Origin: a virus
Reading direction: 5' to 3' (one strand)
DNA length: 64,000 bases
IMG/VR virus record: IMGVR_UViG_3300030419_007010
Span: 32,001-96,000 of that record
In this document: positions 5,147 through 53,400 of the stretch, in pieces
Layout of the letters: each line of letters opens with the position of its first letter
Numbering within the stretch: position 1 is the stretch's first letter
The notes under the pieces: model-generated
Told to the model about the DNA's origin: nothing
Database searches by the model: none
What the model saw: the letters and a program-made list of their open reading frames with translations, nothing else
Position numbers and translations under genes: made by a program

Positions 5147-5383
5147 TTAAGTATACTTAATTTGTAGTTTTTTTCTTCTTTGAGCTTCAGCTTTTCTAAC
5201 ATTTTGAAGCTTTTTTAATTTTGCTCTTCGTCTCTTCTTTGAAGGCTTCTCGAAAAACATTTTTTCTTTGTATCTTTCAATGACTTTTTCTTTTTTAACT
5301 TTTTTAATAAATTTTTTAATTAATCTGCTGGTGTTTCCGCCAACTTCTTTTAAAGAAACCTCAACATGTACTGGTTTAGCCAT
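5147..5383 (-). CDS. rpsU: Phage-encoded 30S ribosomal protein bS21
   Basis: 78 aa and very basic. LIKKFIKKV...VIERYKEKMFFEKPSKKRRRAK matches the bS21 signature (LrrFkr...r.ffeKPs.kRr). Confidence 0.85.
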   Translation of the reverse strand: MAKPVHVEVSLKEVGGNTSRLIKKFIKKVKKEKVIERYKEKMFFEKPSKKRRRAKLKKLQNVRKAEAQRRKKLQIKYT

Positions 5384-6916: not shown

Positions 6917-7549
6917 TTAATCTCCCAAGATATCATCAAGAACATTGTTGATTCTTTGAGTTTTTGTAGTATTTTGCTGGTTTTCTGCCAGTCCGATAGA
7001 AACTCTACTTCTTGACCCGCCTTCCGGATTCAAGTAAGCCCCTGGCGTTGAAGGTTCCGAAACAATATCAAAGCAAATAAGCTGAAAATCATCTTCAACC
7101 ATTGTTATGCCGTTTGATTCTTTTACTGAACCTAATCCTCTCGAAGAAATTCCTAGTTTTACTCCCGATTGAAGCAAAGCTTTTAATACTTTGCCCGAGG
7201 GGGTATCCAAAACTTCAATTTTGCCCATTACATTATCGCCATCCCACCAAGTTTTCGTAACAAGATGAGAAGCGTTCTTCAAGTTGATAACAGAATCATC
7301 AGGATGATCTAGTTCTCCCAACGATCTTCTTTCTTGAACCGCTCTTTGGTAATTTTCTACTTCTCTCTGCAAAGTTTCTTTACGATAGATTCGACCATTA
7401 CCATTTTTTGTTCCGGCGCGTTGAATCACACCAACAAGATAAACCGATCCGCCATCAACACGACGTTTTTCGTCTTCGGTTAATACAGTTAGATCACAAA
7501 TGCCATCCGGACATAATTGGAAATATTCTTGTAAAAGTGTTTTTGACAT
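6917..7549 (-). CDS. Prohead protease, T4 gp21-like (peptidase S77)
   Basis: NGNGRIY, LGELDHP, ASH, TPSG, GISSRGLGS and FDIVSEPSTPGAY motifs. Likely start MSKTLLQEY at 7549; the ORF track extends it to 7570. Confidence 0.93.
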   Translation of the reverse strand: MSKTLLQEYFQLCPDGICDLTVLTEDEKRRVDGGSVYLVGVIQRAGTKNGNGRIYRKETLQREVENYQRAVQERRSLGELDHPDDSVINLKNASHLVTKTWWDGDNVMGKIEVLDTPSGKVLKALLQSGVKLGISSRGLGSVKESNGITMVEDDFQLICFDIVSEPSTPGAYLNPEGGSRSRVSIGLAENQQNTTKTQRINNVLDDILGD

Positions 7550-7555
7550 AATATT

Positions 7556-7575
7556 AAAAAGCAGGCGCAACCTGC
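7556..7575 (-). terminator. Putative rho-independent terminator or attenuator hairpin
   Basis: Minus strand reads GCAGG-TTGCG-CCTGC followed by TTTTT. Confidence 0.5.
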
Positions 7576-8514: not shown

Positions 8515-9335
8515 TAGCTTTGTATCTCTTTTACTAAACTTTGAATTTTCATAATCTTTTGAATCATACTCGAAGTTATTTCTGTGTTTCTAAACTCTTC
8601 TATTGTATTAATAACTTTCTGTGTTTTTTCAAAAATCAAAGGATTGCTTTTAACCGCCTCGGAGTGAAGCGATTCTGTCATTTGGGTTTTTAATCTTCCA
8701 ACTTCTTCATTTAAGAAGACTTTGAACTCAACACCATTGTCTGAAAAAGAAGTAATATACTTATTCAGCAATTCTTTTTGTTCTTCTTGCAGGTTCTTGG
8801 AATAAATTGAATTAAAGTTTTTTGTAAATGTATTAAAAACCAACTTGTCGGTTGTCACAATTTTTTCTTTTAGCATTTCCTGTGGCTCGCTCAACTGGCC
8901 AATCACTTTTTCTTCTAAAAGAACTCGTTTTTTAGGTCCATCTTCTTCATTGAAAAGTTGATAGATCGTGGCGATATTTTTATATTGCGGAACAAAGTTA
9001 GAAAATATATTTCTTGAGAGAGATTTGTTTATTTGATTAATAAGTTTGCTTTGAGCTTCAAAAACCTCTTCTCTATCTAAACTTTTATATTCTCTTCTAG
9101 CTTCGTATACTAGCTTTTCTGCTATTCTGCTTGACAAGTTTCTACTTTCTAATAAAGATTTATAAATATCTAATTCTTTTTTGAGAATGCTGTCTTTTTT
9201 AAAGTTTTCTTTTATTAGTGAAATAATCTTGTTTTTTGTTTGTGAATTATTCTTGACAATTGATTTTGTTAGTTCTTTTACAAGTGCTTCAAATAAAAAC
9301 GCTGTATTTCTTTTCTTATTATGTCTAAACTTCAT
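8514..9335 (-). CDS. Hypothetical helical protein next to portal (273 aa)
   Basis: Long ORF overlapping the portal stop; K/E/L-rich. Confidence 0.7.
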   Translation of the reverse strand: MKFRHNKKRNTAFLFEALVKELTKSIVKNNSQTKNKIISLIKENFKKDSILKKELDIYKSLLESRNLSSRIAEKLVYEARREYKSLDREEVFEAQSKLINQINKSLSRNIFSNFVPQYKNIATIYQLFNEEDGPKKRVLLEEKVIGQLSEPQEMLKEKIVTTDKLVFNTFTKNFNSIYSKNLQEEQKELLNKYITSFSDNGVEFKVFLNEEVGRLKTQMTESLHSEAVKSNPLIFEKTQKVINTIEEFRNTEITSSMIQKIMKIQSLVKEIQS

Positions 9336-11316
9336 TCTTTTTCGTCTCCAACAATTCCATTTCGTTGATTAACTGCTTTATATCATGATCAACTTTTAAT
9401 AAATTATCTTCATCTCTTTTATAATTAGACTCTAAATTCTCTGAAATACCTTTTGCTAGTCTTCGCATGTCGTCAGCGCCTTTCCAGATATTTCTTGTGG
9501 TATTTTTTGTTAATTCATCTGCCCACACACCCTTATAATGTCTTTGCCTTGCGGAGCCGGCATAATTGGGATTTTTTTCGGGCATATACCACTTTTTAGA
9601 TTTCGGAGTAGTTGTTTGTACGCTCGTGCCTTTCTTTCTAACTAGCTTTATAGGCATCTCCTTTCCATCATCTCTTTTTGCCGGGGCAGCGAGCAGGGCA
9701 CCGGGATCGGCCGGCTCTTCAGCGCCAGCTTCGGGCACTGCCAATTCCTCATCACCAGCCGCGATGGCTTCTTCTTCGGGCGGCAGGCCTCCACCAAGAT
9801 CGTCCATCGGTTCATCGAGACCCTCCAGATCACCAAGTCCTCCGGCTCCAGGTTCGGCGCCTGCTGTGACTTCTTCAACTGTTCTTTCTAGAGCAGCCTC
9901 AAACTTTCTGTCATAGAACATCTCTCTCTGACATCTAGTAAACTCTTCTTCGGACATGCTGAATAGGTGATCTGAAATCCATCGCTTGCTGAAATATCCT
10001 TCGGTGGCTGCGCTAGCAACATCAAATTTAGTTCTCCAGTGTTCTAGTTCCTGCATCTCTGCTAGTTTAGATGGATTGTTCAAAGCAATCTTGAACGAAA
10101 CCAAGTCGGCGCCTCTGTAGCCAAGAGTAAACAAATGGACAATGCCAATTTTCTCTAGTTCTGAAATTATAACTCTTTGAAGCCTCTGAATGGTTCTCGC
10201 AAATCGAATATCTTTTTGAGCTAGCGTTGTTTTATCTTCTTCTGCGCCGCCTTCCGTCTGCGCCAAATAAGATGCCGGTATCTTTAGTGCCGAGAATAGC
10301 TTATCTCGCAAATATTTGATATCATCAATATCACCAGTATACGTGCCGCCCGGTAGAGACTCAACTTTAGAAGAAGTATCCCCGCGAACTGGAATAAAGT
10401 AATCTTCTTCAACGCTCATCGGGTTATAACGCAAATCGACGCGTCCGGTATCTTGATCGATGACCTGATTTCTCTTCATTTGCGTCATGACCTTCTGCAT
10501 ATACTGTTCAACATCGGCAGGAGGAATATTGCCTACATCAATATAGAAAACTCTTCTCTCTGGCGAGCGGACAATACGATAGGCCATTACGGCGTCTTCC
10601 ATAAGAGTTAGCTGGCGCCAAATTCTTCTAGCCGGCTCCAAAATAGAGGTTCCATAAGGAGAATACTTATCGTTGCCTAAAATTCTAAAGTGTGCAATCT
10701 GCCAGTTCTCAAATGTAATGCCACCGGTGTTCCATTGATACTGAATATAGTTTGGATTAGTCTTGTCTTCACCCTCAAGTCTTTCTATTTCTTGCGGAGG
10801 CAGGCCAACTGCATATTGGATGCCTTCTTGTTCGTCAATATCTAAATAAAGAAAGAAGTCGCCGTATTTGCACATTGTGCGAGCCCAGCCGAATAAATTA
10901 AATTCAATATTTAATACATTCTTATATAAGTTATCCAAAACTGTTTTTATTTCTTCGTTATGACAACTAATTTTCATCAACGGCTGCAAATCGCTAGATG
11001 TAGTCATCTCGTCTGCATAAATATCAAGCGCTGAAGCGATTTCTGGCGTATATTCCATCTGATCAAAGTCAACATACCGATCGGCACGGTTTTGATTCGC
11101 CATATAATTGGCTTGAATTGAATCATAAGGATTATACTCTGACTTTTTAAACTGTTGACCGGAAGATGAGCGAATATTATACTTTGATATTTCTCTACGA
11201 TGAGGTTGTCGAGGAAGCTGCCTACGATAGTTTACAATCGGGCCTGACAAAAGTCGCGTGAGTTTTCGGAATAATATATTTTTTGAATTTCTAGGGTTAT
11301 TTTTATTTTCAGCCAT
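9325..11316 (-). CDS. Portal protein, T4 gp20-like (663 aa)
   Basis: EIASALDIYADE, LMEDAVMAYRIVRSPERRVFYIDVGN, EEDYFIPVRG, LPGG and DIKYLRDKLFSALKIP motifs. Long acidic C-terminal extension. Confidence 0.95.
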   Translation of the reverse strand: MAENKNNPRNSKNILFRKLTRLLSGPIVNYRRQLPRQPHRREISKYNIRSSSGQQFKKSEYNPYDSIQANYMANQNRADRYVDFDQMEYTPEIASALDIYADEMTTSSDLQPLMKISCHNEEIKTVLDNLYKNVLNIEFNLFGWARTMCKYGDFFLYLDIDEQEGIQYAVGLPPQEIERLEGEDKTNPNYIQYQWNTGGITFENWQIAHFRILGNDKYSPYGTSILEPARRIWRQLTLMEDAVMAYRIVRSPERRVFYIDVGNIPPADVEQYMQKVMTQMKRNQVIDQDTGRVDLRYNPMSVEEDYFIPVRGDTSSKVESLPGGTYTGDIDDIKYLRDKLFSALKIPASYLAQTEGGAEEDKTTLAQKDIRFARTIQRLQRVIISELEKIGIVHLFTLGYRGADLVSFKIALNNPSKLAEMQELEHWRTKFDVASAATEGYFSKRWISDHLFSMSEEEFTRCQREMFYDRKFEAALERTVEEVTAGAEPGAGGLGDLEGLDEPMDDLGGGLPPEEEAIAAGDEELAVPEAGAEEPADPGALLAAPAKRDDGKEMPIKLVRKKGTSVQTTTPKSKKWYMPEKNPNYAGSARQRHYKGVWADELTKNTTRNIWKGADDMRRLAKGISENLESNYKRDEDNLLKVDHDIKQLINEMELLETKKNEV

Positions 11317-18796: not shown

Positions 18797-21700
18797 TTAG
18801 AAACTAACATAAGCATATCCGTCCTTTTTCTCAATAATAAGTTGAGAATCTACACAATCTTTCAACGAGTCCAAGTGCGAAATCAATACGACTGTTTTAA
18901 ATTGTGTCTTAACCATGTCCAACATCCTGACAAAGCCTTCCATATTATCTTCGTCAAGCGCAGTACCGGGCTCGTCGAGAATAAATATATCAGACTTTGG
19001 AAGAGTCGAGACATTTAACAGCGCCAAGCGGATGGCCATTGCAGCAATAGTTTTTTCTGCTCCGGAACCCATTTCGATCGGACGTGGATCGTGGCGCGGG
19101 TGTTTAATATGAATATCCAGCTTCTTACCATCTTCTTCAAAGAAAATTTCAAACTCTACAATATTGGTAAGAATTTTAGATATTTCTTCGTTAATGATTG
19201 GAAGCTTTTTCTTAATAATATCATATGATATGCCGTTAGTATGCATGCATCTCAAGTATAAATCAATAGAAGAATATTCATTTTGAAGAGTTATATACTC
19301 TTGTTGTTGTTGCTCTAAATTTTTAACACTCTGTTCCAAAGAGCCGTGAACTTTATAAAGCTCCAAAGTCTCTTCATTGCATTTCTCATATCTATCTTTA
19401 AAATCGACATGTTTATTAAAAGTGTGCTCTTTTTGTTTAATAAGCTCTTCAAGATTTTCTATAGTTTCTTTATTGTCTTCATACTCTCGTTTTTTATCAT
19501 TAAGATCTTTTAAAGCGCTCTGAGTCTTTAAGAGTTTGGTCTTGTTCTTTTCTATCAAAAGTTTGGTGTTGTTGACAGAACGTTGAACTTCGTTTCTCTT
19601 TTCTAAAAGTTTATCATACTTTTCCAGATACTCGTTAATTTTATCTGGCTCCAATGACGAAACTTCTTGTTCCACTTCTTTCTTGAAAAAGCTTAATTCT
19701 TCGATTGAAACCTGTACTTTCCCAATTTCGTTTTTGGATTCATATGCGTCTTTGATAAATTTACAACTAGGAAAACTATCGCCACACGGCACTTCGTCGA
19801 GGAGTTCAATCTTCTCACCATGGTGGCTAAACTTCATTTCCAAGACTTTTAGCTCTTGTTCAAAGTTCTCAATTTTCTTTCTATGTTGCTGAATTAACAA
19901 AGCTTTTTCTTCATATGAAGCATAATCAAAGCTGCTAATGAACTCTTCCATTCTCACGAGAAGGTCCCTGTTGTCGCTCAATCGAGAACTGAATTCAGTG
20001 CTTTGTTCTTTGACAGTCTCAAGAAGCTCTTCTTGTTCATCAATTCTTCGATTCACAAAAGCAATATCAATAATCTCCGCAGGAATTGAATCAATCACAG
20101 AATTTAAGTCATTGATCTTGCCAGCCAGTATTTCAATATCTTTGCTTAAAAGCTCGCATTCTTTCTTTTTTCTCTCCGCAACAATTTCATTTAAGACCAA
20201 TTCTTCGTTAGCTAGTTTAATTTCTTCTTTAAAATCACGACCTTCTAGGCGTTTTAAAGCCGCGCGAATTTCAGAAGCTTCTTCTTTGGCTAACTTAAAC
20301 TTCTTTTCAAACAACTCTAAATCTAGAAATTTAGCTAGAATTTCCTTTCGCCGGGTTGAACCTTCATTAATAAATGAAAGCGAACCTAACTGGCTAGCCA
20401 TTGAAGTCATAAGGAAATCTTCGATGGTTCCAAACACCTTCTTGATATTCTTGTCGGTGTCCATTCGGCTCAAGCCGTTCAATGAATCGACTTCTCCAGT
20501 TGTGTTGTTGCGCTTAACAAAATTAACATCAGTTTTTGCTTCAAGAGTAACTTCACCTTTAAGCTTCTTTGTATATTTTTCAGAAGTTCTCTCAATCAAA
20601 TAAGTGTTATGGCCAACATCAATTTCTATTTCGCCAACACATGATTGTTTATTTTGATTAATAAAGTTAAGATTCTTTCTTACATTCTTCGAAGTTGAGT
20701 TGTATAAAGTGTAAAGAATACTATCAACAATGCTGGACTTTCCTGAATAGTTCTTGCCAAACACGCCCAGAATTCCATGAGAGTTTCCAAAGTCGATTTC
20801 ATTATCTGAACCATAATTGAAAAGATTATCCCACTTCACGCTTCGCAAACGCCAGTTTACGTTTCTTGCAACTTCTTCTTCTTGTTCAGCTAAAGTGTTA
20901 TATCTTTTGTTGAGATCAAAAATAATATCAAGAAGTTCTTCCGGAGTATCATACTCTTCAAGATATCCAGAAATAAGCTTTTCTTGGGTTTTCAGATTTC
21001 TTAAATCTTCTTGGACCAAGTTTTTTGCTAATTCAGATACATTGGCGTTGTCTTCTGCTCTGTTAAGGTAGGTGATAGCTTCTGGCTTAAAACGGTGTTT
21101 AGCTACGTCTATTGCCTTCCTCACGGCATCCAAGGATAAATTACTAGTGGATACCAGCCTTAACCTCGCGCCTTCCGGCAAGGAGGTGTTTTTGGGCATC
21201 CTGCCCTTCTTGGTTAGCTCGATAGTAATAAAGGGCTTTGGATTAGAAATTGGGATATGCTTGACAGTAAACTCTTCTTTGTCTTTGATATCCCAAACCA
21301 AGAAGCCTTTATCGTTTGTCTCGCCGTGATTCTGCTGAATAGTAGAACCTGGATATCTGACTCGACCTTCGGGATCTAATGCCTGATTTGTCTTGTGGAT
21401 ATCACCAAGGAAGGCAAAATCGAAATCCTTAAAGATTGTAATGTTGTCATCAGTGTGTTCTAGTGTCCAACCAATGTCGGTTTTTGAACTAGAGACAGAC
21501 CCGTGATACAAAGCGATATTCACGGCATCTTTATTTGATGGTTTAACCCAATTCTCTCTATCAAAGACGGAAAGCACGTTAAAATAGAAGCCGTCTTTAA
21601 GCTTCATCTCTTGCGAATCTTTTAGGAGATATAGATCGGGGTGATCAAGCGAACGAACAATTGGTGTCAAAGCATCGAGACGGCCACTGTTTTTCAAGTT

Positions 21701-21946
21701 CCCGTCGTGATTACCAAGAATTACAACTGTTGGTGCTATATCAGCTAATGAAGACAGAAACCAGCTGACCATACTGATCATCTCTGGACTCATGTCGGTT
21801 TTTGTGTGAACTAGGTCACCACATATAACGATGTTATCTACTTCTTCTTTTCTTAAAACATCATAAAGCTGTTTGAAAACTGCTCTATATTCAGTATGAT
21901 ATTTTAATTTCCGAATGTGAACATCTGCCAGATGGGCAATGCGCAT
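18797..21946 (-). CDS. Fused Mre11/SbcD nuclease and Rad50/SbcC ATPase (T4 gp47-gp46-like) (1049 aa)
   Basis: Phosphoesterase motifs DVH, GDLVH, GNHD, YHG, GDIH. Walker A GKNYSGKS, long coiled coil, signature GSGAE, Walker B ILDEP, ISH. Confidence 0.92.
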   Translation of the reverse strand: MRIAHLADVHIRKLKYHTEYRAVFKQLYDVLRKEEVDNIVICGDLVHTKTDMSPEMISMVSWFLSSLADIAPTVVILGNHDGNLKNSGRLDALTPIVRSLDHPDLYLLKDSQEMKLKDGFYFNVLSVFDRENWVKPSNKDAVNIALYHGSVSSSKTDIGWTLEHTDDNITIFKDFDFAFLGDIHKTNQALDPEGRVRYPGSTIQQNHGETNDKGFLVWDIKDKEEFTVKHIPISNPKPFITIELTKKGRMPKNTSLPEGARLRLVSTSNLSLDAVRKAIDVAKHRFKPEAITYLNRAEDNANVSELAKNLVQEDLRNLKTQEKLISGYLEEYDTPEELLDIIFDLNKRYNTLAEQEEEVARNVNWRLRSVKWDNLFNYGSDNEIDFGNSHGILGVFGKNYSGKSSIVDSILYTLYNSTSKNVRKNLNFINQNKQSCVGEIEIDVGHNTYLIERTSEKYTKKLKGEVTLEAKTDVNFVKRNNTTGEVDSLNGLSRMDTDKNIKKVFGTIEDFLMTSMASQLGSLSFINEGSTRRKEILAKFLDLELFEKKFKLAKEEASEIRAALKRLEGRDFKEEIKLANEELVLNEIVAERKKKECELLSKDIEILAGKINDLNSVIDSIPAEIIDIAFVNRRIDEQEELLETVKEQSTEFSSRLSDNRDLLVRMEEFISSFDYASYEEKALLIQQHRKKIENFEQELKVLEMKFSHHGEKIELLDEVPCGDSFPSCKFIKDAYESKNEIGKVQVSIEELSFFKKEVEQEVSSLEPDKINEYLEKYDKLLEKRNEVQRSVNNTKLLIEKNKTKLLKTQSALKDLNDKKREYEDNKETIENLEELIKQKEHTFNKHVDFKDRYEKCNEETLELYKVHGSLEQSVKNLEQQQQEYITLQNEYSSIDLYLRCMHTNGISYDIIKKKLPIINEEISKILTNIVEFEIFFEEDGKKLDIHIKHPRHDPRPIEMGSGAEKTIAAMAIRLALLNVSTLPKSDIFILDEPGTALDEDNMEGFVRMLDMVKTQFKTVVLISHLDSLKDCVDSQLIIEKKDGYAYVSF

Positions 21947-21986
21947 ACTCTTATCCTATATATCTGCTCATTATGAGCCACAATAC

Positions 21987-22015
21987 ATTCTAGCAAATCA
22001 TAAGGGACAAGTCAA
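21987..22015 (-). promoter_or_regulatory. Sigma70-type promoter for the Mre11-Rad50 gene
   Basis: TTGACT (22015-22010), 17-nt spacer, TAGAAT (21992-21987), with an extended -10 TGn. Confidence 0.75.
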
Positions 22016-22022
22016 GCTTTTT

Positions 22023-22424
22023 TTAATAACTTGTTGGTCCCGAATTTCTAGTCAATATTGGCTTAGATTCCTCTTTCTCTTGTGCCCAACTTGGAGTTGG
22101 AAAGTTTGGCACGGCTTCTTTACTTTTATCTAGTTTGTTTCCGTAGCCTTGTTCTTCGAGCGCAACTAATGCATCTCGAAGGTTTTGTGCTGCGTCAACA
22201 ACTTGTTCTGGTAATATGTCTAGTGGAAGCTCTTCTAAAATTCTAGAAGCTACTTTAACGTTATTATATACTGCGTCTGGATCTTCTTCTGAAGTGTCCA
22301 TAAGATCTGACGGGCCTAGGCCTTGGGGTTCTGGTGTGACGCCGGTGGCAATAGAGAACGGGCCGATAGTCTCTTTCAGTTCTTCTTTAATGATTTGTTT
22401 TAATCTTGTTTTAGTTATCTTCAT
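22023..22424 (-). CDS. Leader-family protein (MKITKTRLKQIIKEE...)
   Basis: Likely start is the ATG at 22424 with GAGGAAGAG upstream, not 22499 as in the ORF track. Confidence 0.65.
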   Translation of the reverse strand: MKITKTRLKQIIKEELKETIGPFSIATGVTPEPQGLGPSDLMDTSEEDPDAVYNNVKVASRILEELPLDILPEQVVDAAQNLRDALVALEEQGYGNKLDKSKEAVPNFPTPSWAQEKEESKPILTRNSGPTSY

Positions 22425-22737
22425 TGATCTCTTCCTCAAGCGGCGCGTGAGCCGGCGTGGATCCGCGGGGGCGTTCGGCGCCGGCGAGAGGTTCTCCAAT
22501 CGATTCTGAGTCTATAAAATAAGAAAGTGTCTCTAGCATATCCCGCACAATTTTCTGAACCTCTTTTTCTGGCATATGAGGATGATTTTGGCGAAGCTTC
22601 ACGGTCAGCGCAGTACCGAGTTCGTGTCTAGTGGCTTCTGTCAAAACTAATTCAGTTTCTTTTTTAGAAGCAGAAGCTTCTACTAGATCTAGTTCTTCTT
22701 TAATAATTTCTTTTAGTCTTGATTTTGTTATTTTCAT
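22411..22737 (-). CDS. Leader-family protein (MKITKSRLKEIIKEE...)
   Basis: Shared N-terminal leader; TAATG coupling. Confidence 0.7.
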   Translation of the reverse strand: MKITKSRLKEIIKEELDLVEASASKKETELVLTEATRHELGTALTVKLRQNHPHMPEKEVQKIVRDMLETLSYFIDSESIGEPLAGAERPRGSTPAHAPLEEEINEDN

Positions 22738-23066
22738 TATCTGGGAGCCCTATATGTATCTTCACCAGTGCGGGCGAACTCAGCATCACTCTTGGCGAAG
22801 GAACTAAGCCCATGTTTTCGTTTAAACTCTATAGCAATTTCATCAACCATCGTCTTAAGTCTTCCACCAGTAATAGATTTTCGAATTGTTTCTAAAGCCT
22901 CTTCTGCTGAAAGTTTTACTTGATATAACTCGTCGCGACAGGCTTCTACTGATGCTTGTGCGCGCTTCTTGCCAAATAAATCAATCTCGTTGATTTTCTT
23001 TTCAGCCAATACATTAGCTACTTCTTCTTTAATGATCTGTTCTAGTTGTGATTTTGTTATGTTCAT
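22737..23066 (-). CDS. Leader-family protein (MNITKSQLEQIIKEE...)
   Basis: Shared N-terminal leader. Confidence 0.7.
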   Translation of the reverse strand: MNITKSQLEQIIKEEVANVLAEKKINEIDLFGKKRAQASVEACRDELYQVKLSAEEALETIRKSITGGRLKTMVDEIAIEFKRKHGLSSFAKSDAEFARTGEDTYRAPR

Positions 23067-23413
23067 GATATTATTTGCTTAACTTATCCGTTATTATATC
23101 TACTAGATCTGCCCATTCAGCCGCCGGCGAGGACTTGCTCGGGAGAAGGATCTTCGCGCCTAGGGTATAAAGCAGGTTTTGTGCAAACTCTTGAGTTAAA
23201 TATTCCGGGAGTCCACCGCCCAAACTTGCGCCATCGCCGGTCGCGATGGAATAATAATCATTAAGAACTTCAGGATTTATTTTAGCTTTTTGCAAAATTT
23301 CTTCCGGGGAGGGCGGAGAACCAGGGGCCTCTCTTAAAATATTCTCTATTACTTCTTCTTTAATGATCTGTTCTAGTTGTGATTTTGTTATGTTCATGAT
23401 ATTATTTGCTTAA
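23019..23413. repeat. 64-bp exact direct repeats flanking one leader-family gene
   Basis: tacttcttctttaatgatctgttctagttgtgattttgttatgttcatgatattatttgcttaa at 23019-23082 and 23350-23413. Confidence 0.92.
23071..23397 (-). CDS. Leader-family protein (MNITKSQLEQIIKEE...)
   Basis: First 16 codons are identical to those of the downstream gene. Confidence 0.7.
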   Translation of the reverse strand: MNITKSQLEQIIKEEVIENILREAPGSPPSPEEILQKAKINPEVLNDYYSIATGDGASLGGGLPEYLTQEFAQNLLYTLGAKILLPSKSSPAAEWADLVDIITDKLSK

Positions 23414-24351
23414 GTAGAAAGCACACTCCTTAATAAATAGTTAGAACTATTCATAAGTATAGCATTTTTTTTGCGCTCTTCAAACTCGCTTTTGCTCATC
23501 TCGCCAACATCTGAAAATGGGAAGATATTTATCTTATAAACTTCAATCCCGTATTCCATCAAATTGTTGATCAATCTCAACGCTTTTTTCTCAACATCAG
23601 GATCCAAAGCGATATATATTGTTGTCTCGTTTGCTGCAAGTTCTTGAAATAATTTAGAGTTTTCTTTTAACGTCGAACCCAAAATAGGAATTGCGCTCGG
23701 TCCAGCAACAATGGCATCATAAACGCCTTCAACCAAAGTGACGCTTTCTTTCCAATTAACATATAGATGATTAAATATTATATCCTTCTCAACCGGCGGG
23801 TTCTTATACTTCATCCAATCGTCAACATATGTTCGAGAAACAAAGTAATTGCAATATCCTGTTAAACCAAAAGAAGGAACGATTATTCTATTTGCGTATT
23901 CTCCTTCTGAACAATATCCTATTTTCCATCGGACAATATCCTTTTCTGTTATGCCACGAGACTTAAGATATTTTCTTGCGGCCAGCGAGCCAATAGAGTT
24001 GTTTCCGTTGGCTAATGATATAAATTCTTTTGGCAAGCCAACTTGTTCTTCTAATGTTTTTGTTTCTTCTGTTCCGAAGATCGATTCTTCAAAATCGTTA
24101 ACATCAACAGAGCCATCCAATTCTTTCCAAGATTCAATCTGTTTGAAGTTGCCGAAGCGCCGGATGAGTCTTGAGATGTTTCTTCCACTATAATCACAGA
24201 TCCAACATTTGAAAGCATTCTTATCAACATTAACTGATAGCTTGTTTTTATGGTGCGTGCATTCTGGACAGCGAAAAAGAAACTCTTCGCCAGTTCTATA
24301 AAACCGGCCGAGGATATCAACTAGGATTCTTCTTTTTTCTGCTTCTGCCAA
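23410..24351 (-). CDS. DNA primase, DnaG/T4 gp61-like
   Basis: Zinc ribbon CPEC...CWIC, YLKSRGI, RIIVP, KYKNP, and TOPRIM EGVYD...LDPD. Confidence 0.9.
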   Translation of the reverse strand: MAEAEKRRILVDILGRFYRTGEEFLFRCPECTHHKNKLSVNVDKNAFKCWICDYSGRNISRLIRRFGNFKQIESWKELDGSVDVNDFEESIFGTEETKTLEEQVGLPKEFISLANGNNSIGSLAARKYLKSRGITEKDIVRWKIGYCSEGEYANRIIVPSFGLTGYCNYFVSRTYVDDWMKYKNPPVEKDIIFNHLYVNWKESVTLVEGVYDAIVAGPSAIPILGSTLKENSKLFQELAANETTIYIALDPDVEKKALRLINNLMEYGIEVYKINIFPFSDVGEMSKSEFEERKKNAILMNSSNYLLRSVLST

Positions 24352-35981: not shown

Positions 35982-38900
35982 TTAATCTTCGCTCCTAGGA
36001 CCAAACATTATTTCTGCTGTTAGCTTGTTTAATTCTGACAGGGAATAAAAATCATGTGGCCAATTATACGAAATCTTTTCTTTGATTGAAACTGTATCAT
36101 TATCTTTAAAGGCATCCATATCCATCAACGATTCGTATCTGTTGTTCGCTCTCTTCTTTACTTTAAATACCAACCACTTAAGTTCTTGGTTAAATATTTT
36201 TTCTAAAGATGATTTATTCCCAGCAGGAGAATCGTCCGGGATATCTGGGCCATCATAATATTCTATTTTATTTCCCCCTGGCATATAACTTTTAATTTGA
36301 TCTAACATGCCAAAAAACTCCCAGCGATCAGTGCTTTTGTTAATGCCATGAGACTTAACGCTGAACTCTTGCTCGGCGGCGGTGGCTTGTTTTGGCATAA
36401 TATTTTGCCATATATCTCCAAGATCTTTTTTATCCAATTTGGAAGTTATTTCAAAAGTATACATAACAAAGGGTAATATACCTTGAGAAGTATTAACAGA
36501 GCCAAACGCATCAGATACTTTGGTTTCTGAATATTCACTAAGATTCGACTCGGAGAGACCTTGAGAATAAAAATCGATCATTGGAGGGAATATATACTTT
36601 CTCATATTTTTTATCAAGTCTGATATCGACGTCCGAGATCTCTTTACCGATCCTTCAATAGCCACATAATCTACCTCTGGATTGCGCAAATTCAAAAATT
36701 GATGATAATATGAATTTTGATTAATTGGAATTGCGTTAATTATATGCCCGTTCGAGACCTTTCTAAAAGGCTGGACCGTTAAGTTTTCGATCGGTTCCTC
36801 AACGTATGGTATTGCGACGATGCATTCTGCTACTTCAGCCGAATCTGCTAACTCTCCAACTCTTTTTTCAATTTCTGTGTCGCCCGTGGAATCAGCAATT
36901 GAATTCATATTAGTCATAGAATCAAATTTCAATAACTGAATCAAGCTGCCTGATTTATTAATATCATAATTTGGATCGTTCTGGTCAATGGCTTCTCTGA
37001 GATAGTACTTAATTCCTTTTTTAATCGGCTTGCCCCCTTCATATATCCATTGCGATGGATCTTCAGAATGCACGTTCGCATACGAATTCCAAATAGATCT
37101 TCCTGTTCGTTTACTAAAATATGGGCCGCTCTCTACGTCATGATTATAGCCACTGTCATAGCTGCTAGCGGAAACACATATAACGGGACATTCCCATTTT
37201 GGACGAATAGCCCAAGCAATTTTATCAAATCCGTCCGAGTCAGAATATCCTTTTACACCAAATTTTCCGTCGGGGCCGGCGAGGGCGCCGTATTGAACTT
37301 GTTTAACGGGGATCTTATCAAAAAGGTTCAAAGAAGCGGTGATGGCCATTGTATTTTTTGCAGCAATAGAATAAGGATGTAGAAGATCTTTCGCCCTAAT
37401 ATGAACGCCGGTGCGATTTCCATCTTGGTCTTTTACTATATCACTCTGGCGCTGTGGAGACAATAAATCAAAACTGGCATTAGAATTTGGAACAATGATA
37501 CTATCATATTCATTATAATAGCTCACACCTACTTTATCAGTCACGGAGCTGCCTTGAATTTGTGACATTATTTCATCAATACTAACAGCGTTCGCGCCTC
37601 CTTCTTCAGAATCTGGGGCTGTCCACCTTATTTGCGCTACCGATTTGCCATAATAATATGGAGGAGTATACATAGCATATGCTGGATCCATCTCGGAGTT
37701 ATTAAAGAACCTGTCCGCGGAACCAGACGTGGAACCGCTTGGTCTAGAAGCTATAGATTGCACGACGTGATCAAAATCAGATGATCCTGTTAACTGCCTC
37801 CAGCCGCGGGAAGCGTGGGGCCAATGCACAGTATCGACATCAGGCCTGTTCGGATAAACATCTTTACCGGCGTTGGCAGACGCGCTTCTTGCTGCTGGCG
37901 GGCCGAAGATATACCCTTTGCGAGGGCCGGCCTGTGGGTCGGCGAAGTTCCATTGATGATTAAGATAACCATGCTCTGCTGTATTGGGAGAAAACGCTCC
38001 CGTAAATCGACTTAATATTAGCTGATCTCGCGGGCCCTCAGCCATAACAAGATCATAAGTTACTGGATGTTCTATTTTCTCTAAAACAACCTCCATATAA
38101 TAAGTCTTTCCCACCTCTGGTGTATTCATCTGGCTACTGTCTGCAGAGAAAATTCCATTTCGGCCGCGGGATTTTAAAAAGAAATTAGGTACTTCTGCAA
38201 TAAAATTATTCATTGCTATTTCAAACTGTTTATTTCTTTTTTTGTCATCCCACACAAAAGAGTGAACCGAGCCATAATTCCAATCAAAAGACTGACCGTA
38301 GTCATCACTCGAACCGGCGGAGGGGCCCGAAGCAGAACCAAATGTTGGCTCAATCAGCGGTGATGATCTGGCAATCATCTTCGGTAGCCCGTTGAGGTCA
38401 AATCCGATGGCGTTCGGTACTAGCCTATCCAGATTAACAAGAGACTCAAAGGGTACCCTATAATCAGGATCTGTACTCAAACTTGATCCAGAAGCCCAAT
38501 TGTTTGTCATATTAAACCCAGTGGCGCCGCCCCAATTAGAATTTTCTCCTTCATTTGTTGCGGGAGCGTTTAAAATATAATTTGGCCAATCAACAGCTAT
38601 TCCAGATTTAATCGAATTAAATAAAATGCCAGGAGCAAATAAAGGTTGGAACGCTGCCTGCATCTTGCCGGCTTCATACAAAGCTTCGCCATGTGGTCCG
38701 ATAGTGCCTGTAGTGCGAATAAAGGGATTAATAGATTCTTGATATAATTGCGCTAATTGTTGAGTTCTTGTAGCAGGATAAAATCCGTTATAAGGTAATA
38801 ATTTTTTAATAGCATCTAATCTAAGTATTATATGTGTTGGAACAATATCTTGTTGTTGTGTTCCCTGTCCGGGGTCTAGAGAAGTCAAATCCTCGTGTAT

Positions 38901-41900
38901 TTTCTTTAAGCTAACCATGGAATCTGTGGTGCAATGATCATTTATAAATTGCATATCCCAATCAGGTTTCAAAGCGTTGGATCCCGGGCTATAGCTAGAA
39001 GTTGCTTTATATGCTCCGTCCAAAACAAAAGTTTTAGAACCAACTGTTAAAGCCTTGCTTTCATCGATCTGGCTAGCGGCTGCCGCTGGATTAAAGTCTA
39101 TCATATCAAAACTTTCCAAATAATAGTCAATCTTGTCTGACATCTTATACTCGGGTAACACCGCATAATCTTTTCCGAATCTTCTTATGTCTTCACTATA
39201 ATCTTCGTATGAGTCGTACCAAGGGTTTCTTCCGGCAATTTTATTTGCTCTATAATACGGAGCAGTCTTGATCCAGCCTTTTTGGCCAGAAGGAGCATTT
39301 TTGTAGAAATAACTTAGATTTGTAGTACCATATCCGGAATCAGTATAGCCCCACTCACTAGAAGCAGATGTGGATCCTAAAGGAAATTTATAAAAATACT
39401 TATCAGAATCTTGATCGGCGTCAACAGCAAACCAATTTGAATAAGGATCTCTATTAAAATACGCAGAAGCTGTTGGAATTCCCATTTTAAGCAAAGGAGT
39501 TGTATCTAAAGCTAGCTGGCCGGGAGAGCCTCTCAAACCTTGCAACGTATTTGAATCAATAGATTGGCCTTGCTCCAAATAGCCTGCAGGAGCATAGGGT
39601 CCTGTGGGATGGCTTCCAGAATAGAAGAGCCAACATTGTCCGCCCCCATATGCAGCCATCGTCGGACCAGAGGCACTAAGTGTGGCACCATATGTATTAT
39701 CATCCAAGGGCCACATAGATAACTGAACAGGGGTATGGGAAGTTCCAGAAAAAATTGGAACTCGATCGCCGGGGAAAGTATCAAACAAATAGGGAATCGA
39801 TCCAGTTGTTTGCCCCCCAAGCAAGCCACTATCAATTTTTTGACCAGAAATATTTCTGGCGGTACCGTCTGTACGCACTCTATCTGAATGTGAGTTTCTC
39901 CAAAAAGTTCTGTAGTTTACACTATCATAACCAGCTACAGCATCAGGGCCGTCCTGGGCCGCTCCTGGGAGTTCCGTGTAATTCGGCCTTCTGGATTTGC
40001 TGGCTATATATGTATTAATATCTTTCGGAAATATTGTCATGGAATACGCAAGAGATCTGAAATCTCCGATGGTTGTTTCCGAGCCATATTGGTCAGAGCC
40101 ATCTCTTATAATTGGAAGCAATAAATCATATGTTTGCTTTTCAGGAAATGGAATATTGGACGAAAATTTACCAGCGTCAGTTTTATTTATTAAATTCAAA
40201 TATTCATTTTTATAATATGCCCTATTATTATCATATGTGTGCTTTAAAGAAAACCCTTTGCCTTGTCCGAGTGGATCAAAATCTGTTCTAATTGGTTTAT
40301 TTCTAGAGGTTACTGCTGACTCTGTAAAAAATAATAATTTGTTTTTAAAAATAGATATTTGTGAAGCCTGCTCTACGACAGTGGCTTCTGAATTTCCGGG
40401 GGCATATCCTCCGGGCATCCCTTCTAGGGTGCCAAAGTCGTAGGTGCCTTCTGGCGCTCCGAGAGGGGGTTCAGGTTTTTGGCCGGGTATTTTATTTCCC
40501 ATGGGTGTATAGATATCAGTATTTTTTATTTCTTCTTCGACGACATTAACTGAATGCAAATTATTCTTTCTCAAATTCTTTGCAACTGGATGATCACCAG
40601 TTCTAATTTGTTTCCAAGAGGGATGTCCATAAGGGCCGTTGCGATGATGGAGAAGTTGGTTCAAAATACTTCCGAAACCTAAAATTTCTGGTTGGCCCGA
40701 GGTGTGCGACGCAGCGTATCCCATATGAATCAAAGCGCCCTGATAAGCAAAGCTAGTTATTGAATCACTATCATGCGCAGAAGCGGGATGGCCTAGGAAA
40801 TTTTGGTTAGATGTAATAGGATCAGTAATATTTGTATTCAATCCAACAAAGTCTACGGGTATAAATTTATTCATTGAAGCCGTGGCGCCGGTCCAACGAG
40901 CATAATTATTTAAAAAGCTCCCTACTTCGCTTTGAGCTAAGAATGTAATCTCCGAAGATTTTTTATCTGCACTATAAGCACCGGTGGCATAACCAAGGGG
41001 AGCAGATTCGCCTTGAGCATGTGTGTTAAGAGAAGCAGTAATCCATGCGTATTGTCTTTCTGATCTTGGAATTGTATGTTGGATATAGTAGTTGTCGTAT
41101 GAAGCGCTAACAACGCTAGCATATCCATCCTGTCCAGTTCCGGGCTCTAGTTGGCGACGGTAACCAGCATTCCTATGAATCTTGTGATAGCTAGCCGTTC
41201 CTGCAGACATGAAATCGATAGAAGCTGTATTGTCATTCATCTTAAAGCCGAACTTACGATTATGAGTTGTCAAGAATCCTCGTAGCGGCTGTCTAACTGA
41301 CAAGTTTCTCCAAGGCAATGCATTATATGGAGAGTAGGTTTCAGATGTTATATCCATTGCTCCGCGAGATAATACTTCGGGGCCACCTGGAGCAGAGAAC
41401 CTTTCGGCGAATACTGTTCTATTTCTAACATTGGTAGTACTAGACGTTAAATAAGAGCGGTCTGGTAATCTAAAGTCTAAGACGCCTGACACATAAGTAG
41501 ATATTGAAGGTTGCCACGCGGAGCCGGTTTCACCCTGAACTAACCACAGATTATTAACATCGCGGCCTTGAGTTTGAACAACTTGATAATTATCAGTATA
41601 ATTGCCCGCTCTAGTTGGGCTCGAACTGGTCATCTTAATATTACGAATGTTTACCGGTCGTTTAGCAAATTCATCGCGATAGTGCGTTGCTCTCGGCCGG
41701 TTAGCATCTTGATAAGTAACATCATAAACTCTAAATGAATCAATTACGTCACCAACAATATTAACATCGTCAATAGCGACGTCGCCTTCGTGAGTGATAC
41801 CTGAAGTATAAAGGAATCTTAAATATATTGGTGTCTCTGTTCCCTTGAAACTATTCAAATCAACCGTTGCCAATTTCCATGGCGCGACTGCGCTAGCTTG

Positions 41901-44900
41901 CTGTTGGCCGGCGATAGAAATTGCTGACGTGCCATCCCAATTGGTTACAAGATCTGTAGCTGTGCCAAAAGCAGAATCAGTAGAATATTGTATTTTTAAT
42001 TCTCCGCAATCCCAGCCAAACATGTGATAGCGGAATGATGCACTAAAATTATTAACGACATCTAAAGGATCAATAGAAGGAGTAACTAATCCGAAAGTCT
42101 TTCCATTAGTATTTGGTACGGATGTCTCCGCATACATATACCATCCAGAGGAATAGCTGCCTGACGGGCCTGTACCGAAAGTTGGGGTGCTACCCGACAT
42201 AGATATCCAACCAGAAGGATCAATAGCCGTAGAGCCAAGATTTTGCCAATCTGTGGGCAGATAACTTGAGGATGCTCTTAAGGATTCTGGAACAGAACTG
42301 CCGTATTCGAAACCTTCATCAATGAAGTTATTTAGGTATAAGCCTCCGATGGGAACCTTAAGATACCAGCCCTCTGCACGGGTTGACTCTGTATCAAGAG
42401 ATTTTTTGTCATCTTGGTAATTTAATTCTGTATGTCTATATTGTAAGCCACCAACATATTTTTCAGTAAATGGGCCCTGAAGTGGTGTTTCTTTAGTATT
42501 ACCGTAATAGTTGTCTTCGTGAAGATTAGTAATATCTAGCATTGTATTTTTGGCTAGATCTCCAACGTAACCTTGTGTAACTGAAGAAGAATGCAAACTA
42601 AACGGTACATATAGTTCGCCTTTACCAGTGGTATACTCACTATCTGTGGACATGTGAGTTGAAGCTTTAAATTTAATCTTACTTTCTGTTAGTGGATTAG
42701 TTATGTCATTGCAGTCAGTGTTCTCGACAAAATCATTTTTATGAATTCTAATAAAAGAATTGCTGTCATTCCATTTAAGTGTATTTTTGTAATAATCTTT
42801 CTTTTTGTTCTCGTAAGAATTTGGGCCGCCTTTTACATGTACACTCTTATCAACATCAAAACGATATGTCTTTGAAAGTTTTCTTAAGGCGTAAGTTGAT
42901 CCTTCGTATGCTTTCGAAGTAGAAGTATCGTATAATACAGGGCCAGAAGCAGATACTTCTGTTGTTATAGTCTTGAGAAGACTTTCTTTATCTAAATTAA
43001 CCCCGGGGACGCTCGAAGATATTTCAGCTTGCGATCTTTCGGCTCTTTCTTTCCACCAAAAACAATTTTTATTTTCAGGAAGAGGAGAATTTGGAAGAGG
43101 TGCATGTCCATATTTCCAATTATAAGATAGTTCATTAATTCCCATAACTTTAGCTACAGGATCTTTGCCTTTTGACTCTAGCGTTGGAAATTTAGTCCAA
43201 TATTTGTTTCTTTCAAGAATATGACTCTCAACCATATTATGGACTTGTCCCGACGTATTAGCAGAAGCGGGAATTAGATTCATAATCATTTTTGTGATCG
43301 ACGAATCAAACCATTTATAGAATTCTACATATTTGTCCAAGTCCGGAGTATTGTGAATTCTCTCAAAGAACAATTGTCTTAATTTTTCTAGACTTTTATA
43401 TTCTTGCCGATATCTATTAACCGGCTCGCCTATTAAATTACTGAAATCTTTTACAGATGAAAAGAAATTAAGAATCTCTTCAGAAATTGTCTGATACATG
43501 CTTTTTTCAATAGCAATATAATATTGTATTGGTCTTGTTTCTCTAGTGAACGTTGTATCATCTCTTTTTAGAATATTAACCATGTCAGAAGAGTTTAAAA
43601 CTTCCGGCAATTGCTGTCTTGCAGAGGGAGTATAAATTTTATCGACAACGTGATGACTACTGGTGACAAAGTATTGTCCCTTGCCAGAATGCAGATTATT
43701 TAATATTCCACTTAGCCTGCCATACCGGTCTGCATGCAGAGAAGAACCAGAGGAAAAATCATTTACATAAAAAATACCTGTTGAGTCCGAGCCCGTCACA
43801 TTCGAAAAATCCCAGTTAAGTGCTAGCGTTTCCATTTTTGGAATAAACGGATACGAGCCGTCTTTCCCGTCCGCATAAGTTGTTGATATTCCTGATTTAA
43901 ACAAATACGAATTTTTATATGGGTTATCGGAACCAAAGTTAAGAGCATCACGCGCGTGAGCTTGGATAACAGACGAAGTTAAATAATCTAACCAATACCT
44001 GACGGAAGAAATTTTAGCATTACTTTCTTTTAATATGGTACCTGTTGTGTTTGTTCTCAAGGCCCCGGCATAAACTTTCTTTGGAGCTGAAACTAAAATA
44101 TTACCAGTTAAATATGGCAATGATGATGTTAAGGAGAATTCATCAACTATTGTTCCATATTCTGTATTCGTGCCATAAAATTCTAGTATATAATCATCTA
44201 AAGCATTAGGAAGATGAATTGGTCCAGAAGATGAAAGTTTTGTACCCGTTACAATATCTGTAAACGGATGCTTCTTTGGCCTTACGCTTACGGCAAAGTT
44301 CCATTTAGAATTATCAAAAACATCATAATAAGTTGAACTAGAAAGGAAGAAATCATTATTTTCGTTAGTTAAAATAAATCTAGCGTCTAAAGAATCCTTG
44401 TCTGGCTTTACTGCATATACATTAAATTGAGCAACATTGCCGGTATGCCACGTCGTTTGATCAGTTGGTAGTCTTGAATCAACCTGATTCATACCAAAAA
44501 CAGAACATGTTAAATGAGGATATGAAATATAATATTTTTTGGTCTGCGATGGTTTAGGAAAAATAGCTTCTGCCTCTGCCGTAAACGAAAAACCGTCTAA
44601 ATATTTTTCACTGTCTACATCTGTTCCAGAAATAAACGAAACTGTATTGCTATCAATCGGATTGGCAGCCTGATATACTACCGCGCTATAAGCGGCGCGG
44701 TCCGTAGAGTAGTCCTCTGCTGAATATATATAATCATTAAAATCTGCGTACTTTTTAGCCTGCGAGATGGTTCTATAGTTTTCTTCTAGTTTATACGTAA
44801 CTTCATTGCCGTACAGATTAATCTTCAACAATTCGTCATCGATACCAAAGCATCGTATTAAATTTCTTAAAGCTCTCTCTGTTCCTTTTGATTTGTATAT

Positions 44901-50497: not shown

Positions 50498-53400
50498 CTA
50501 ACATTCTTCACCTTCTTCGGAAAGTTCTTTTTCTGTTTCTATAGTCTCTACTTCTTCATTTAGCCACTTGTCATAATCATCTCCGAATCCTAACGAAACC
50601 ATTATTAGGTGAATAAACCCTAGAGGCGTAATAGGGGGACCGACGCCCGGGCCCATGGGTGGCGGGGCCCAGCCAATAAATCCTGCACCATATGGAATAG
50701 TTGACGGGAACAGCAAGAAACAGATTATTGGAAGCAAATATGGATCTACTGCTTTCATCGTATTTCTAGTTTTTCTAACAGCCACTCTAAATTCTAAATC
50801 TAACTCAGCTAGTGGATGTATACCCGCTGTCGCATTCTCATATCCCGGCCATGCGCTTCGGCGGGGATCCCCCTCTTGATCAAGAGTTGGTTCTATCCTA
50901 GTTCCTTCCTGGCCGGATTGTCCAGGTAAATAATTGGGTGCTATATAAATTTTTGTTTCTGGCGGCTTAATCCAGTCTTTTTCATTATCATAAAATTGTG
51001 GATAATCTTCTTTAGGATAATTATCTTCGAGAGTTTTTCCGGTCCCGTCGGGAACATCGCCTTTATATTCTCCGTAAAGAAGAGTCAAAGCATCAACCAA
51101 GGCTTGTTTTTTATTTGCCAAATCTTCTTTTAAATCTTGTAATTCTTGTTTTTTAACTTCTTTTTCTACTTGTTGTTCTGCATTAAATGTTGGCATTGCT
51201 TCCACCTGCTGTTCCATAGGTGGAATAGTTTGCTCTATTTGCTTAATTATCATAAAAAGGCCGTCGACTAAGCCCTTGTTAAAATCTACTACAGTCGCAT
51301 GCGCATCGAATGCTGCTTTTTTAACTTCTTCGGCAACTTTAAGAGAAGTTTCAACAATTAATATTATAGCATCGTTAATAGCTTTACCTGTCATAACACA
51401 GGGATCCGTAATTTCGGCCAAGGCTTTCAAAATTAATTTTGGAGTTTCCTTTACAATAGCTTTGAGCTGGTCTTCTAGAGGATTTTCTGGGAATCGACCG
51501 GTTGTAGAAGTGAAGTTTTGCATCTGGCTAAAGCCGACTGGGCCGCCAAAACTATTAATGAAGGGTACTCCGTCCGACAACTTGTCTACATCTCCAAGCA
51601 TATTTCTCATAAATGATAGAATAATTGTCTTTGTTCCGGTAAACTTGCTTAAGTCTTTAATATCAGTATTTGCGTATGAAGCATAAAAAGCATTCAATAA
51701 CAACATTCTTTCGTATTTGAATACATGTTTGAATAAAAATTTAAAATCATCAGACGCATAAAGATTTTTTAAAAGTTTACTATACGCACCAATGGTGCCC
51801 TTATAATACATTGTAACTAACTTATTATCTCCTAGATCACTAATCTTCAAATCCGAAGATTTTGGAGCTAGATCCGCGGCGCGTTCGCACAACTCTTCTG
51901 AAAATTTCCAAACAGGAATTTTTACGTCTGCTAGAGGTATCTTTGTAAACGCGTATCGTTGATTTGCAAGCTCATCCGAACTTTCAGTTTCTGGTGTTCT
52001 ATCTACGGCTCCTAGAAAAGTTTTATGTACCCAAGAAACTCGGCCGATATCTCCTTCATCATAATGATAATCCATGTCGTCCTGTATTTCACCTAAAAGA
52101 TCACATACACCTTTCGCGGTTTGACGAACTAGTGGTGTTTCCGCGCCCACGTATCCATATTTATCATCAGAAAAATAAAGAGGAAATTGATATACTAATC
52201 TTAAACCAAAACAAAAATTATTAAAATAATCATCTACTTTTGAAGTTTCATCTTCAGAAGAGTTTATATACTCTGACATTATTTTGCCCCAAGTATTTAA
52301 ATCAGCGACGCCATATTCATGTATTTTTTCTTTTTTAGCACTAACATTTAAAGAATAGCCAACTACCTCGCCGTTAACTGTAACCTCATTTTCATTAAGA
52401 AGATCCATAAATTTTGGTTTCTTTTTGTTGTATACATCATAAACATTAGCGTCAAGCGTGCTTTCGCCTGCAGTTTCGCTTTCTTTGTGATCAATCCAAA
52501 TATAGGGCTCAAGAACAAACATTCCCGGGTGATCTTTAATCGGCAGATACGCCGAAGATGGGTGTACGCCTGCATCAGAAGTTAAATTGCCACCATTTTT
52601 TTGGTTTGATGGATCCCAAATAATATTTCCTTCATAATCTTCTTGAAGTAGTTTTCTAAAGTCAGCCGAAGGGTTCCAAAACTCATGTCTATCATAGCGT
52701 ACACCTTTATTAATAATATGACTAGGCATAGAGGTGTCAGCTTCTCCAGTCGCGAACTCATTACCGGAACCAAACTTTACTAAATTGGTTACTCCGGCCA
52801 TGGCCGGCCACGTTTTAGAGTTCGTTGCCGGTGATGTAGCAATTGGACCCGGCTCGGTCGACTTATAGCCTCGATCCATCTCACCGACCCATTTAAATAA
52901 ATCCAAATGATTTCTAACTCTTGGAATAAATTTATGTTTCTTTTTATTTGATTTGAACACATTCCAAACAACTTCCACGACTTCTGAATATTCTTGTTTT
53001 AATAAAGTTTTAAACGCGTCGTCGCCGTTGGGCAAAGTGTGTTTTTCGCCCAGGAGATGCATGTGTCCGTCTGCGAATTGAACTAAATAATTTTTAATAA
53101 GGTGAGCATGTCCTGGGTGATCACCTTCTACAATTTCTTTAGCATACCCATTACCTTCCTCGTCGATAACATAAGTATGCACATGGGATATTTCACCATC
53201 AGGAGCGGGGGTCTCAGGGTGCTCTCTTGTTTTTCCGGCGCCGGCGGAAATCGTTTCTTTAATAATCTCTTTTGACTGTTCTAAAATAAACTCAAATATA
53301 TCCGGAACATCTAGCAAAGAGTTTTGTTCTTCTAAAATTGCGTTTTTTATTCTCGCGAAAGTCTGTTCAATAAAGAAATCATCATACAAGAGATTTTTAA

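Follow-up and report, generated by a model that had tools for sequence, protein, structure and literature searches.

We find that a single peptide tag of ~22 residues heads at least nine otherwise unrelated proteins in the genome of an uncultured, marine, T4-like phage. Because the tag contains the cutting motif of the head-maturation protease, it is most likely this lineage's signal for loading proteins into the head. By analogy with the T4 internal proteins, we consider it probable, though well short of certain, that the tag is the marine T4-like lineage's equivalent of the T4 capsid targeting sequence (CTS). The CTS concept is not new and has been published for T-even phages; what is new here is the tag itself, how widely it is used, its presence in chains of fused modules, and the sharing of its slots with a second tag. 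The source is an IMG/VR virus record of 161,727 bp (89% complete), and the window referred to throughout is the 64,000-nt stretch of it that was analysed. Positions are those of the window unless they are marked as genome positions.

A shared tag heads otherwise unrelated proteins

The first-pass annotation of the window had reported six copies of a shared leader. All six are present on the minus strand, which carries the genes throughout the tagged region, and a strict tag pattern run against a six-frame translation of the window returned exactly these six sites and zero others. Four of the copies begin tandem genes (genes 1 to 4, Table 1) whose first 15 residues are nearly alike and whose remainders diverge; the other two belong to a 362-aa gene next to the prohead protease. 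The bodies behind the leader had been described as diverging completely, and a comparison of ten genome proteins (nine tagged proteins and the 139-aa core protein) found no significant pairwise similarity, with a best BLASTP E value of 0.012. The body of gene 2 is an orphan that recovered only itself from a search of 5.8 billion proteins, and the first 39 residues of this gene resemble an 83-aa gene found directly after the protease in three relatives (L007, L008 and L011). The body of gene 4 has weak relatives in the same slot of two related loci (L084 and L085), and gene 4 matched only unnamed viral clusters in the ESM Atlas, all below 0.9. An AlphaFold2 model of gene 1, made without an alignment, places a helix at residues 5-22; with a pLDDT of 48.6, the model is too poor for a fold search.

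The 362-aa two-tag gene shows weak matches to scaffold families from residue 133 onward. Its G+C content is 0.495 compared to 0.38 for the genome. The closest relatives have no such gene where the protease gene meets the 139-aa gene, which suggests that it is a recent insertion. We reject it as the main scaffold: that role belongs to a 364-aa gene that lies beyond the window, upstream of the capsid gene, which makes the two-tag gene an additional one. The first module of the two-tag gene and the gene 4 body may be distantly related (E=0.012). The 139-aa gene directly follows the protease in most related loci.

Scanning the full genome and its relatives with a tag profile, a check that the first-pass annotation had proposed, revealed more copies than first reported. 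Across the whole genome, ten profile matches (E<=0.001) fall on eight proteins, and an eleventh, weaker N-terminal copy is carried by a 321-aa gene (genome 150062-151027). Outside the window, a tandem run of three tagged genes occupies genome 139.9-141.5 kb, and one of the three also has an internal tag copy.

We also looked at candidate promoters. A sigma-70-like promoter (TTGACT, 17 nt, TAGAAT) sits in the 76-nt gap between gene 4 and the SbcCD-like gene (21947-22022). Matches to the T4 late promoter, TATAAATA, number 8 on each strand, which is no enrichment. A candidate late-promoter motif, CTATTTATTTA, is found upstream of the scaffold and two other genes, and a 10/11 match to it lies 43 nt before gene 1; allowing one mismatch, CTATTTATTTA is not enriched either (7 found, 5.2 expected).

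Table 1. Tagged genes, flanking genes and head-module markers (window positions unless marked as genome positions)
Feature	Position	Strand	Remarks
Tagged gene 1, 108 aa	23071..23397	-	Acidic body without relatives
Tagged gene 2, 109 aa	22737..23066	-	Basic body (pI 8.8)
Tagged gene 3, 108 aa	22411..22737	-	Acidic; start overlaps gene 2 stop
Tagged gene 4, 133 aa	22023..22424	-	ATG at 22424 used; mechanical ORF begins at TTG 22499
Two-tag gene, 362 aa	5826..6914	-	Tags at Met1 and Met142; between protease and 139-aa gene
Conserved head-module protein, 139 aa	5396..5815	-	Degenerate tag with two I-K-E motifs; 68 relatives cover body
64-nt perfect direct repeat, copy 1	23350..23413		16 nt upstream plus first 16 tag codons
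64-nt perfect direct repeat, copy 2	23019..23082		
Primase-like gene	23410..24351	-	Conserved upstream anchor of variable slot; 69 related loci
Fused Mre11/Rad50 (SbcCD-like) gene	18797..21946	-	Conserved downstream anchor of variable slot
Prohead protease, T4 gp21 type (Peptidase_S77)	6917..7570	-	PF03420 1.3e-31; phrog_207 5.8e-59
Portal protein, T4 gp20 type	9325..11316	-	Head-module marker; PF07230 2.8e-83
Scaffold, gp22 slot, 364 aa	genome 30483-31577 (L003:2080-3174)		Just outside window; directly upstream of capsid gene

The tag peptide is conserved and contains a candidate cleavage site

To describe the tag, we used a profile of 318 non-redundant copies drawn from the source genome, about 150 related loci and database proteins. 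The consensus, M-K-I-T-K-x-x-L-K-Q-I-I-K-E-E-L-x-x-V-L-x-E, has no Pfam counterpart, and full-text literature searches for tag strings returned no paper. The most conserved positions are M1 (87%), K2 (87%), T4 (86%), K5 (88%), L8 (96%), I11 (91%), I12 (90%), E14 (99%) and E15 (96%), with a weaker L16-x-x-V-L-x-E after this core. All 318 copies have a hydrophobic-x-Glu tripeptide with its Glu at residue 14, and 56% have a second one ending at residue 21 or 22, compared to a background of 2.9% per position. Most leaders had been said to be followed closely by a Glu site, and five of the six window copies do have hydrophobic-x-Glu within 10 residues downstream. The best candidate for cleavage is the invariant I-[KRQ]-E at residues 12-14 of the tag, and the downstream position stands as a second, less conserved site. 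The leader had also been called an amphipathic helix. We do not endorse the term, since shuffled sequences have a hydrophobic moment as high as that of the tag. Some tag copies are found at C-termini.

Tag copies differ from one another at synonymous codon positions, which argues that selection acts on the tag peptide. At least one neighboring gene pair shares identical tag DNA: genes 1 and 2, the exception among the copies, are alone in this, and the identity takes the form of the perfect 64-nt repeat.

Tagged genes turn over at a few fixed slots

Tagged genes enter and leave at a few fixed positions in these genomes (the primase|SbcCD and protease|139-aa slots), in agreement with the earlier proposal that cargoes vary at fixed loci. 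Among 69 relatives, the primase-like and SbcCD-like anchors are 3 to 1939 bp apart, with 0 to 4 genes between them. At this slot we counted 49 tagged bodies, 45 from relatives and four from the window, which form 23 clusters, 18 of them singletons. The protease|139-aa slot is likewise variable, being empty or occupied by one, two, or one long tagged gene.

The cargoes are mostly orphans. Across about 150 related loci the tagged bodies of the source genome are nearly without relatives, compared to 59 matches for the scaffold and 68 for the 139-aa protein. No known domain was found in 130 tag-bearing proteins, and the few Pfam matches were marginal and probably spurious. With cargoes that lack recognisable domains, there is no pointer to an effector function. 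The cargo modules have a median pI of 5.0, and 67% are below pI 6; these values are similar to those of control phage ORFs, indicating no charge bias.

Tagged modules are numerous, often fused, and share their slots with a second tag

An exhaustive profile search of 1.84 billion cluster representatives identified 11,354 tag-bearing clusters (50% identity) at E<=0.001. In five large or complete relatives, the source genome included, there are 6 to 23 tag copies per genome, often in long tandem runs. Many relatives fuse tagged modules into chains, and the top database matches carry 2 to 4 tags per chain. The joints of these chains are enriched in hydrophobic-x-Glu: for 247 non-redundant internal tag copies, the motif lies no more than 8 residues upstream in 70%, compared to 23% expected, which is not a clean statistic because the sequences are related to one another. 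The enrichment fits cutting at the joints, or alternatively the repeated fusion of neighboring cassettes.

A second N-terminal tag, M-K-x-L-[LFM]-E-N-W-R-x-[YF]-[LV]-N-E, is present on at least five genes at genome 135.7-144.2 kb, outside the window (L001:2209-3006 and L001:5782-8214), with a sixth, looser match at genome 135777. This tag also occurs at the C-terminal end of an 810-aa protein. In relatives, it appears directly after the protease (L081, L079 and L067) or the primase (L117), which are the slots of the first tag, and one database protein (P0080) has both tags in one chain.

The tag is linked to the S77 head protease

That the window encodes a gp21-like protease was confirmed by a Peptidase_S77 match (Table 1), and this prohead protease is presumed to be the enzyme that processes the tag. 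The T4-like head module around it also holds the large terminase, and a gp23-type capsid gene lies just beyond the window edge. By protease identity, the nearest cultured phages are distant, at 47% for Flavobacterium phage immuto and ~43% for cyanomyophages. Also within the head module is a 78-aa homolog of ribosomal protein bS21 (5147-5383; phrog_21469, E=3.7e-4). Elsewhere in the window, a baseplate/tail region contains giant ORFs at 35982-46697 (3571 aa) and 50498-59131 (2877 aa), with many PHROG-less genes around them.

T4 gp21 recognizes Leu/Ile-x-Glu, cleaves behind the Glu, and so trims propeptides of 7 to 65 residues from protein N-termini (PMC9026906). The phage's own head proteins have sites of this kind. 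Its capsid protein is predicted to mature at L-K-E59/A60, which aligns with the T4 gp23 site L-T-E65/A66 (T4 gp23 propeptide length from PMC9026906), and an A-L-[RK]-E motif at residue 17 of the scaffold is conserved in 55 relatives. Since these motifs and those of the 139-aa protein fit, the I-[KRQ]-E of the tag is the same type of tripeptide as the likely maturation sites of the head proteins.

The scaffold is conserved (55 non-redundant related sequences) and is homologous to the gene in the same position of phage immuto (2.8e-15). Both of its ends are conserved, with a start of M-L-E-Q-A-I-[IV]-D-A and an end of R-W-K-x-L-A-G-I, the latter loosely like the second (E-N-W-R) tag. The gp22-slot gene of immuto (L153:6925-8166), annotated as 'DNA polymerase phi-like', starts L-L-K-Q-A-I-A-E-A, much as T4 gp22 does. 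Immuto also has a 74-aa gene between portal and protease (L153:4654-4875) that starts M-K-K-S-Q-I-V-K-A-V-Q-E-V-L-E-E.

A degenerate DNA pattern for the tag matched at least 120 stretches in viral contigs, and all ten tested contigs found in this way, by tag DNA alone, encode an S77 protease (119-289 kb). In prokaryote genomes (one genome per species, 185,579 species), the pattern occurred in only 14 stretches, all on metagenome-assembled genome (MAG) contigs from scattered phyla, and a backwards control pattern had 0 matches in the same 185,579 genomes. An S77 gene was present in three of five tested tag-bearing MAGs; in one of these, a single 305-kb contig carries the S77 gene and eight tags, all on one strand. 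The tag thus appears confined to phages with an S77 protease, as far as these ten contigs and five MAGs go. The T4-like phage contigs with tag arrays in MAGs, such as L160, L165 and L168 (NHDW01000006.1, 305,838 bp), are probably mis-binned viral DNA. Their MAG labels include Methylococcaceae, Halobacteriovorax, Legionellales, Peribacter and others.

Some tagged genes are also close to the protease gene. One directly flanks it in 27 of 80 relatives, about three times a rough expectation, and these flanking genes include small acidic gp67-like proteins upstream of the protease. BLAST searches of cultured phages, with the DNA of the array and with the 139-aa and 362-aa proteins as queries, gave no match, and a 23-residue tag query against cultured phages gave one, at E=2. 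The tag was not seen in any cultured phage of the collection. A complex prediction for the scaffold (alignment A3) and the tag (alignment A2) scored 0.00 and carries no weight either way.

Comparison with known head-loading systems

The internal proteins of T4 have in common only an N-terminal CTS of 10-19 residues, which gp21 removes after Glu (PMC9026906, PMC3012670). The first 10 residues of IPIII suffice for incorporation, and the CTS alone packages foreign proteins fused to it (PMC9026906, PMC3012670). A passage of PMC3012670 that cites Repoila et al. 1994 describes the T-even internal proteins as highly diverse, sharing only the CTS that encapsidates them into the scaffolding core, and the CTS has been proposed as a general route by which T4-like phages load varied proteins (PMC9026906).

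The tag resembles the CTS of IPI, IPII, IPIII and Alt in being a short N-terminal peptide with hydrophobic-x-Glu on unrelated small proteins. Both kinds of phage have an S77 protease and a T4-type portal and capsid, and in both the genes concerned are scattered and hypervariable between related phages (for T4, PMC3012670 and PMC9026906). There are also clear differences. The tag has another sequence and is longer (~22 residues compared to 10-19); compared by eye only with the T4 CTS (MKTYQEFIAE; 10.1101/2021.01.19.427310), it shares only the order of two hydrophobic residues, x, and Glu. Tagged genes number 6-23 per genome compared to about 4 in T4, and their bodies are not basic, unlike the T4 internal proteins. 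Also unlike the CTS, the tag has internal and C-terminal copies, and its modules are often fused in chains.

The T4 core proteins gp22, gp67 and gp68 offer a further comparison. Their genes neighbor that of the protease, and the proteins are cleaved at L/I-x-E, with L-I-A-E/A at the N-terminus of gp22 and L-I-K-E-E in gp67. Relatives of the studied phage have a tagged, acidic, gp67-like gene in the place of T4 gp67. The 362-aa and 139-aa genes lie between portal and capsid, by the protease, as the T4 core proteins do, whereas the four tandem genes are 15 kb away. No PHROG or Pfam match above cut-off relates the tagged proteins to gp22, gp67 or gp68; only the separate 364-aa scaffold matches a gp22-slot gene of another phage. 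The tagged set is also much larger than the T4 set and, unlike the real scaffold of this lineage, is not conserved.

In giant phages (phiKZ, 201phi2-1, SPN3US), many head proteins are cut after Glu by a gp21-related protease, and proteins are carried inside the capsid (PMC9026906, PMC5694885). These giant phages form another group, whose virions have an inner body and an RNA polymerase. To our knowledge, the giant-phage propeptides are not one shared short tag.

A model for the tag and its alternatives

In the CTS-like model, the tag would give a protein affinity for the assembling prohead core, so that the protein would be built into the head before DNA entry. The S77 prohead protease would then cut the tag at I-[KRQ]-E and, in many cases, again at an L-x-E eight residues further along, releasing the body. 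In fused forms, the hydrophobic-x-Glu just before each internal tag would allow the modules to be separated. The bodies might either be kept and ejected with the DNA, or be degraded and expelled like scaffold. The proposal that the leader is a capsid-packaging tag came from the first-pass annotation, and part of it has held up, namely a shared tag on unrelated proteins, a gp21-type protease, Glu sites and variable slots; the amphipathic helix has not. The docking into the core, cleavage, injection and effector or anti-defense delivery that it also proposed are putative. Several observations count against a CTS reading. The tandem array lies between replication and repair genes, 15 kb from the tagged genes of the head module, and the candidate late-promoter motif upstream of it is not enriched. 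The tag lacks clear similarity to the T4 CTS and has no raised hydrophobic moment, and the cargo modules are not basic and have no recognisable domains. The C-terminal copies are not explained by a purely N-terminal propeptide model alone.

The tagged proteins could instead be accessory scaffold or core proteins of the gp67, gp68 and gp22 kind, which would take part in building or sizing the prohead core and be degraded and expelled at maturation; the tag would be a core-assembly helix with no part in delivery. We regard this as unlikely, though it has several points in its favor. Small acidic proteins encoded between portal and protease bear the tag at their start in the closest relatives, a placement like that of T4 gp67, which itself has the L-I-K-E-E motif, and the conserved 139-aa core protein bears a degenerate tag. 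The tag region matches scaffold families weakly, the cargoes are domainless, and the single structure model shows poor order. Conservation is the usual state of essential structural proteins, however, and here 18 of the 23 slot clusters are singletons and the slot may be empty, while the true scaffold and the 139-aa protein are conserved and the tagged bodies are not. Genomes hold 6 to 23 copies each and the clusters number 11,354, a turnover typical of accessory, conflict-driven genes.

The position of the main array, beside primase, RuvC-like and SbcCD-like genes and outside the head module, would be easier to understand if the tag had nothing to do with the capsid. It might act as the docking or recognition peptide of a modifying enzyme or of some other phage machine, with the link to S77 being one of shared ancestry only, and systems do exist in which one maturase serves many precursors. 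We find this improbable, given that the one invariant tripeptide of the tag obeys the cutting rule of the head protease, that the same motif recurs at the joints of fused forms, and that 27 of 80 relatives have a tagged gene right beside that of the protease. A radical-SAM gene was also not found in the 89%-complete genome. Conservation might, on the other hand, act mainly on the DNA, with the tag-coding stretch serving as a recombination site for cassette exchange and the peptide nearly functionless. The perfect 64-nt repeat brackets gene 1 and includes 16 nt upstream of its start, and cassettes are gained and lost at fixed slots, both as such a site would predict. This is very improbable: the other copies vary freely at synonymous positions with their amino acids unchanged, the peptide is kept across phages whose proteases are 57-90% and primases 45-54% identical, and recombination at the tag can follow from its conservation rather than cause it.

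A broader version of the CTS-like model is that marine T4-like phages (~120-290 kb) use two interchangeable N-terminal tags, the one described here and the E-N-W-R tag, to load more than 10,000 distinct, small, fast-turnover proteins into the capsid, either singly or in chains with protease-cut joints, and that these proteins would be ejected with the DNA as a host-takeover or anti-defense arsenal. We offer this only tentatively, and consider it doubtful in its full form.

If the tag works as proposed, thousands of unannotatable proteins of abundant ocean phages could be labelled as head-packaged, which would place them in a common context and make them easy to find. A mechanism of a few E. 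coli phages would be extended to a large uncultured group, on a much larger scale. The tag and the protease form a defined pair that can be tested. If the bodies are ejected, they would be a rich source of candidate proteins for host takeover or counter-defense in the first minutes of infection.
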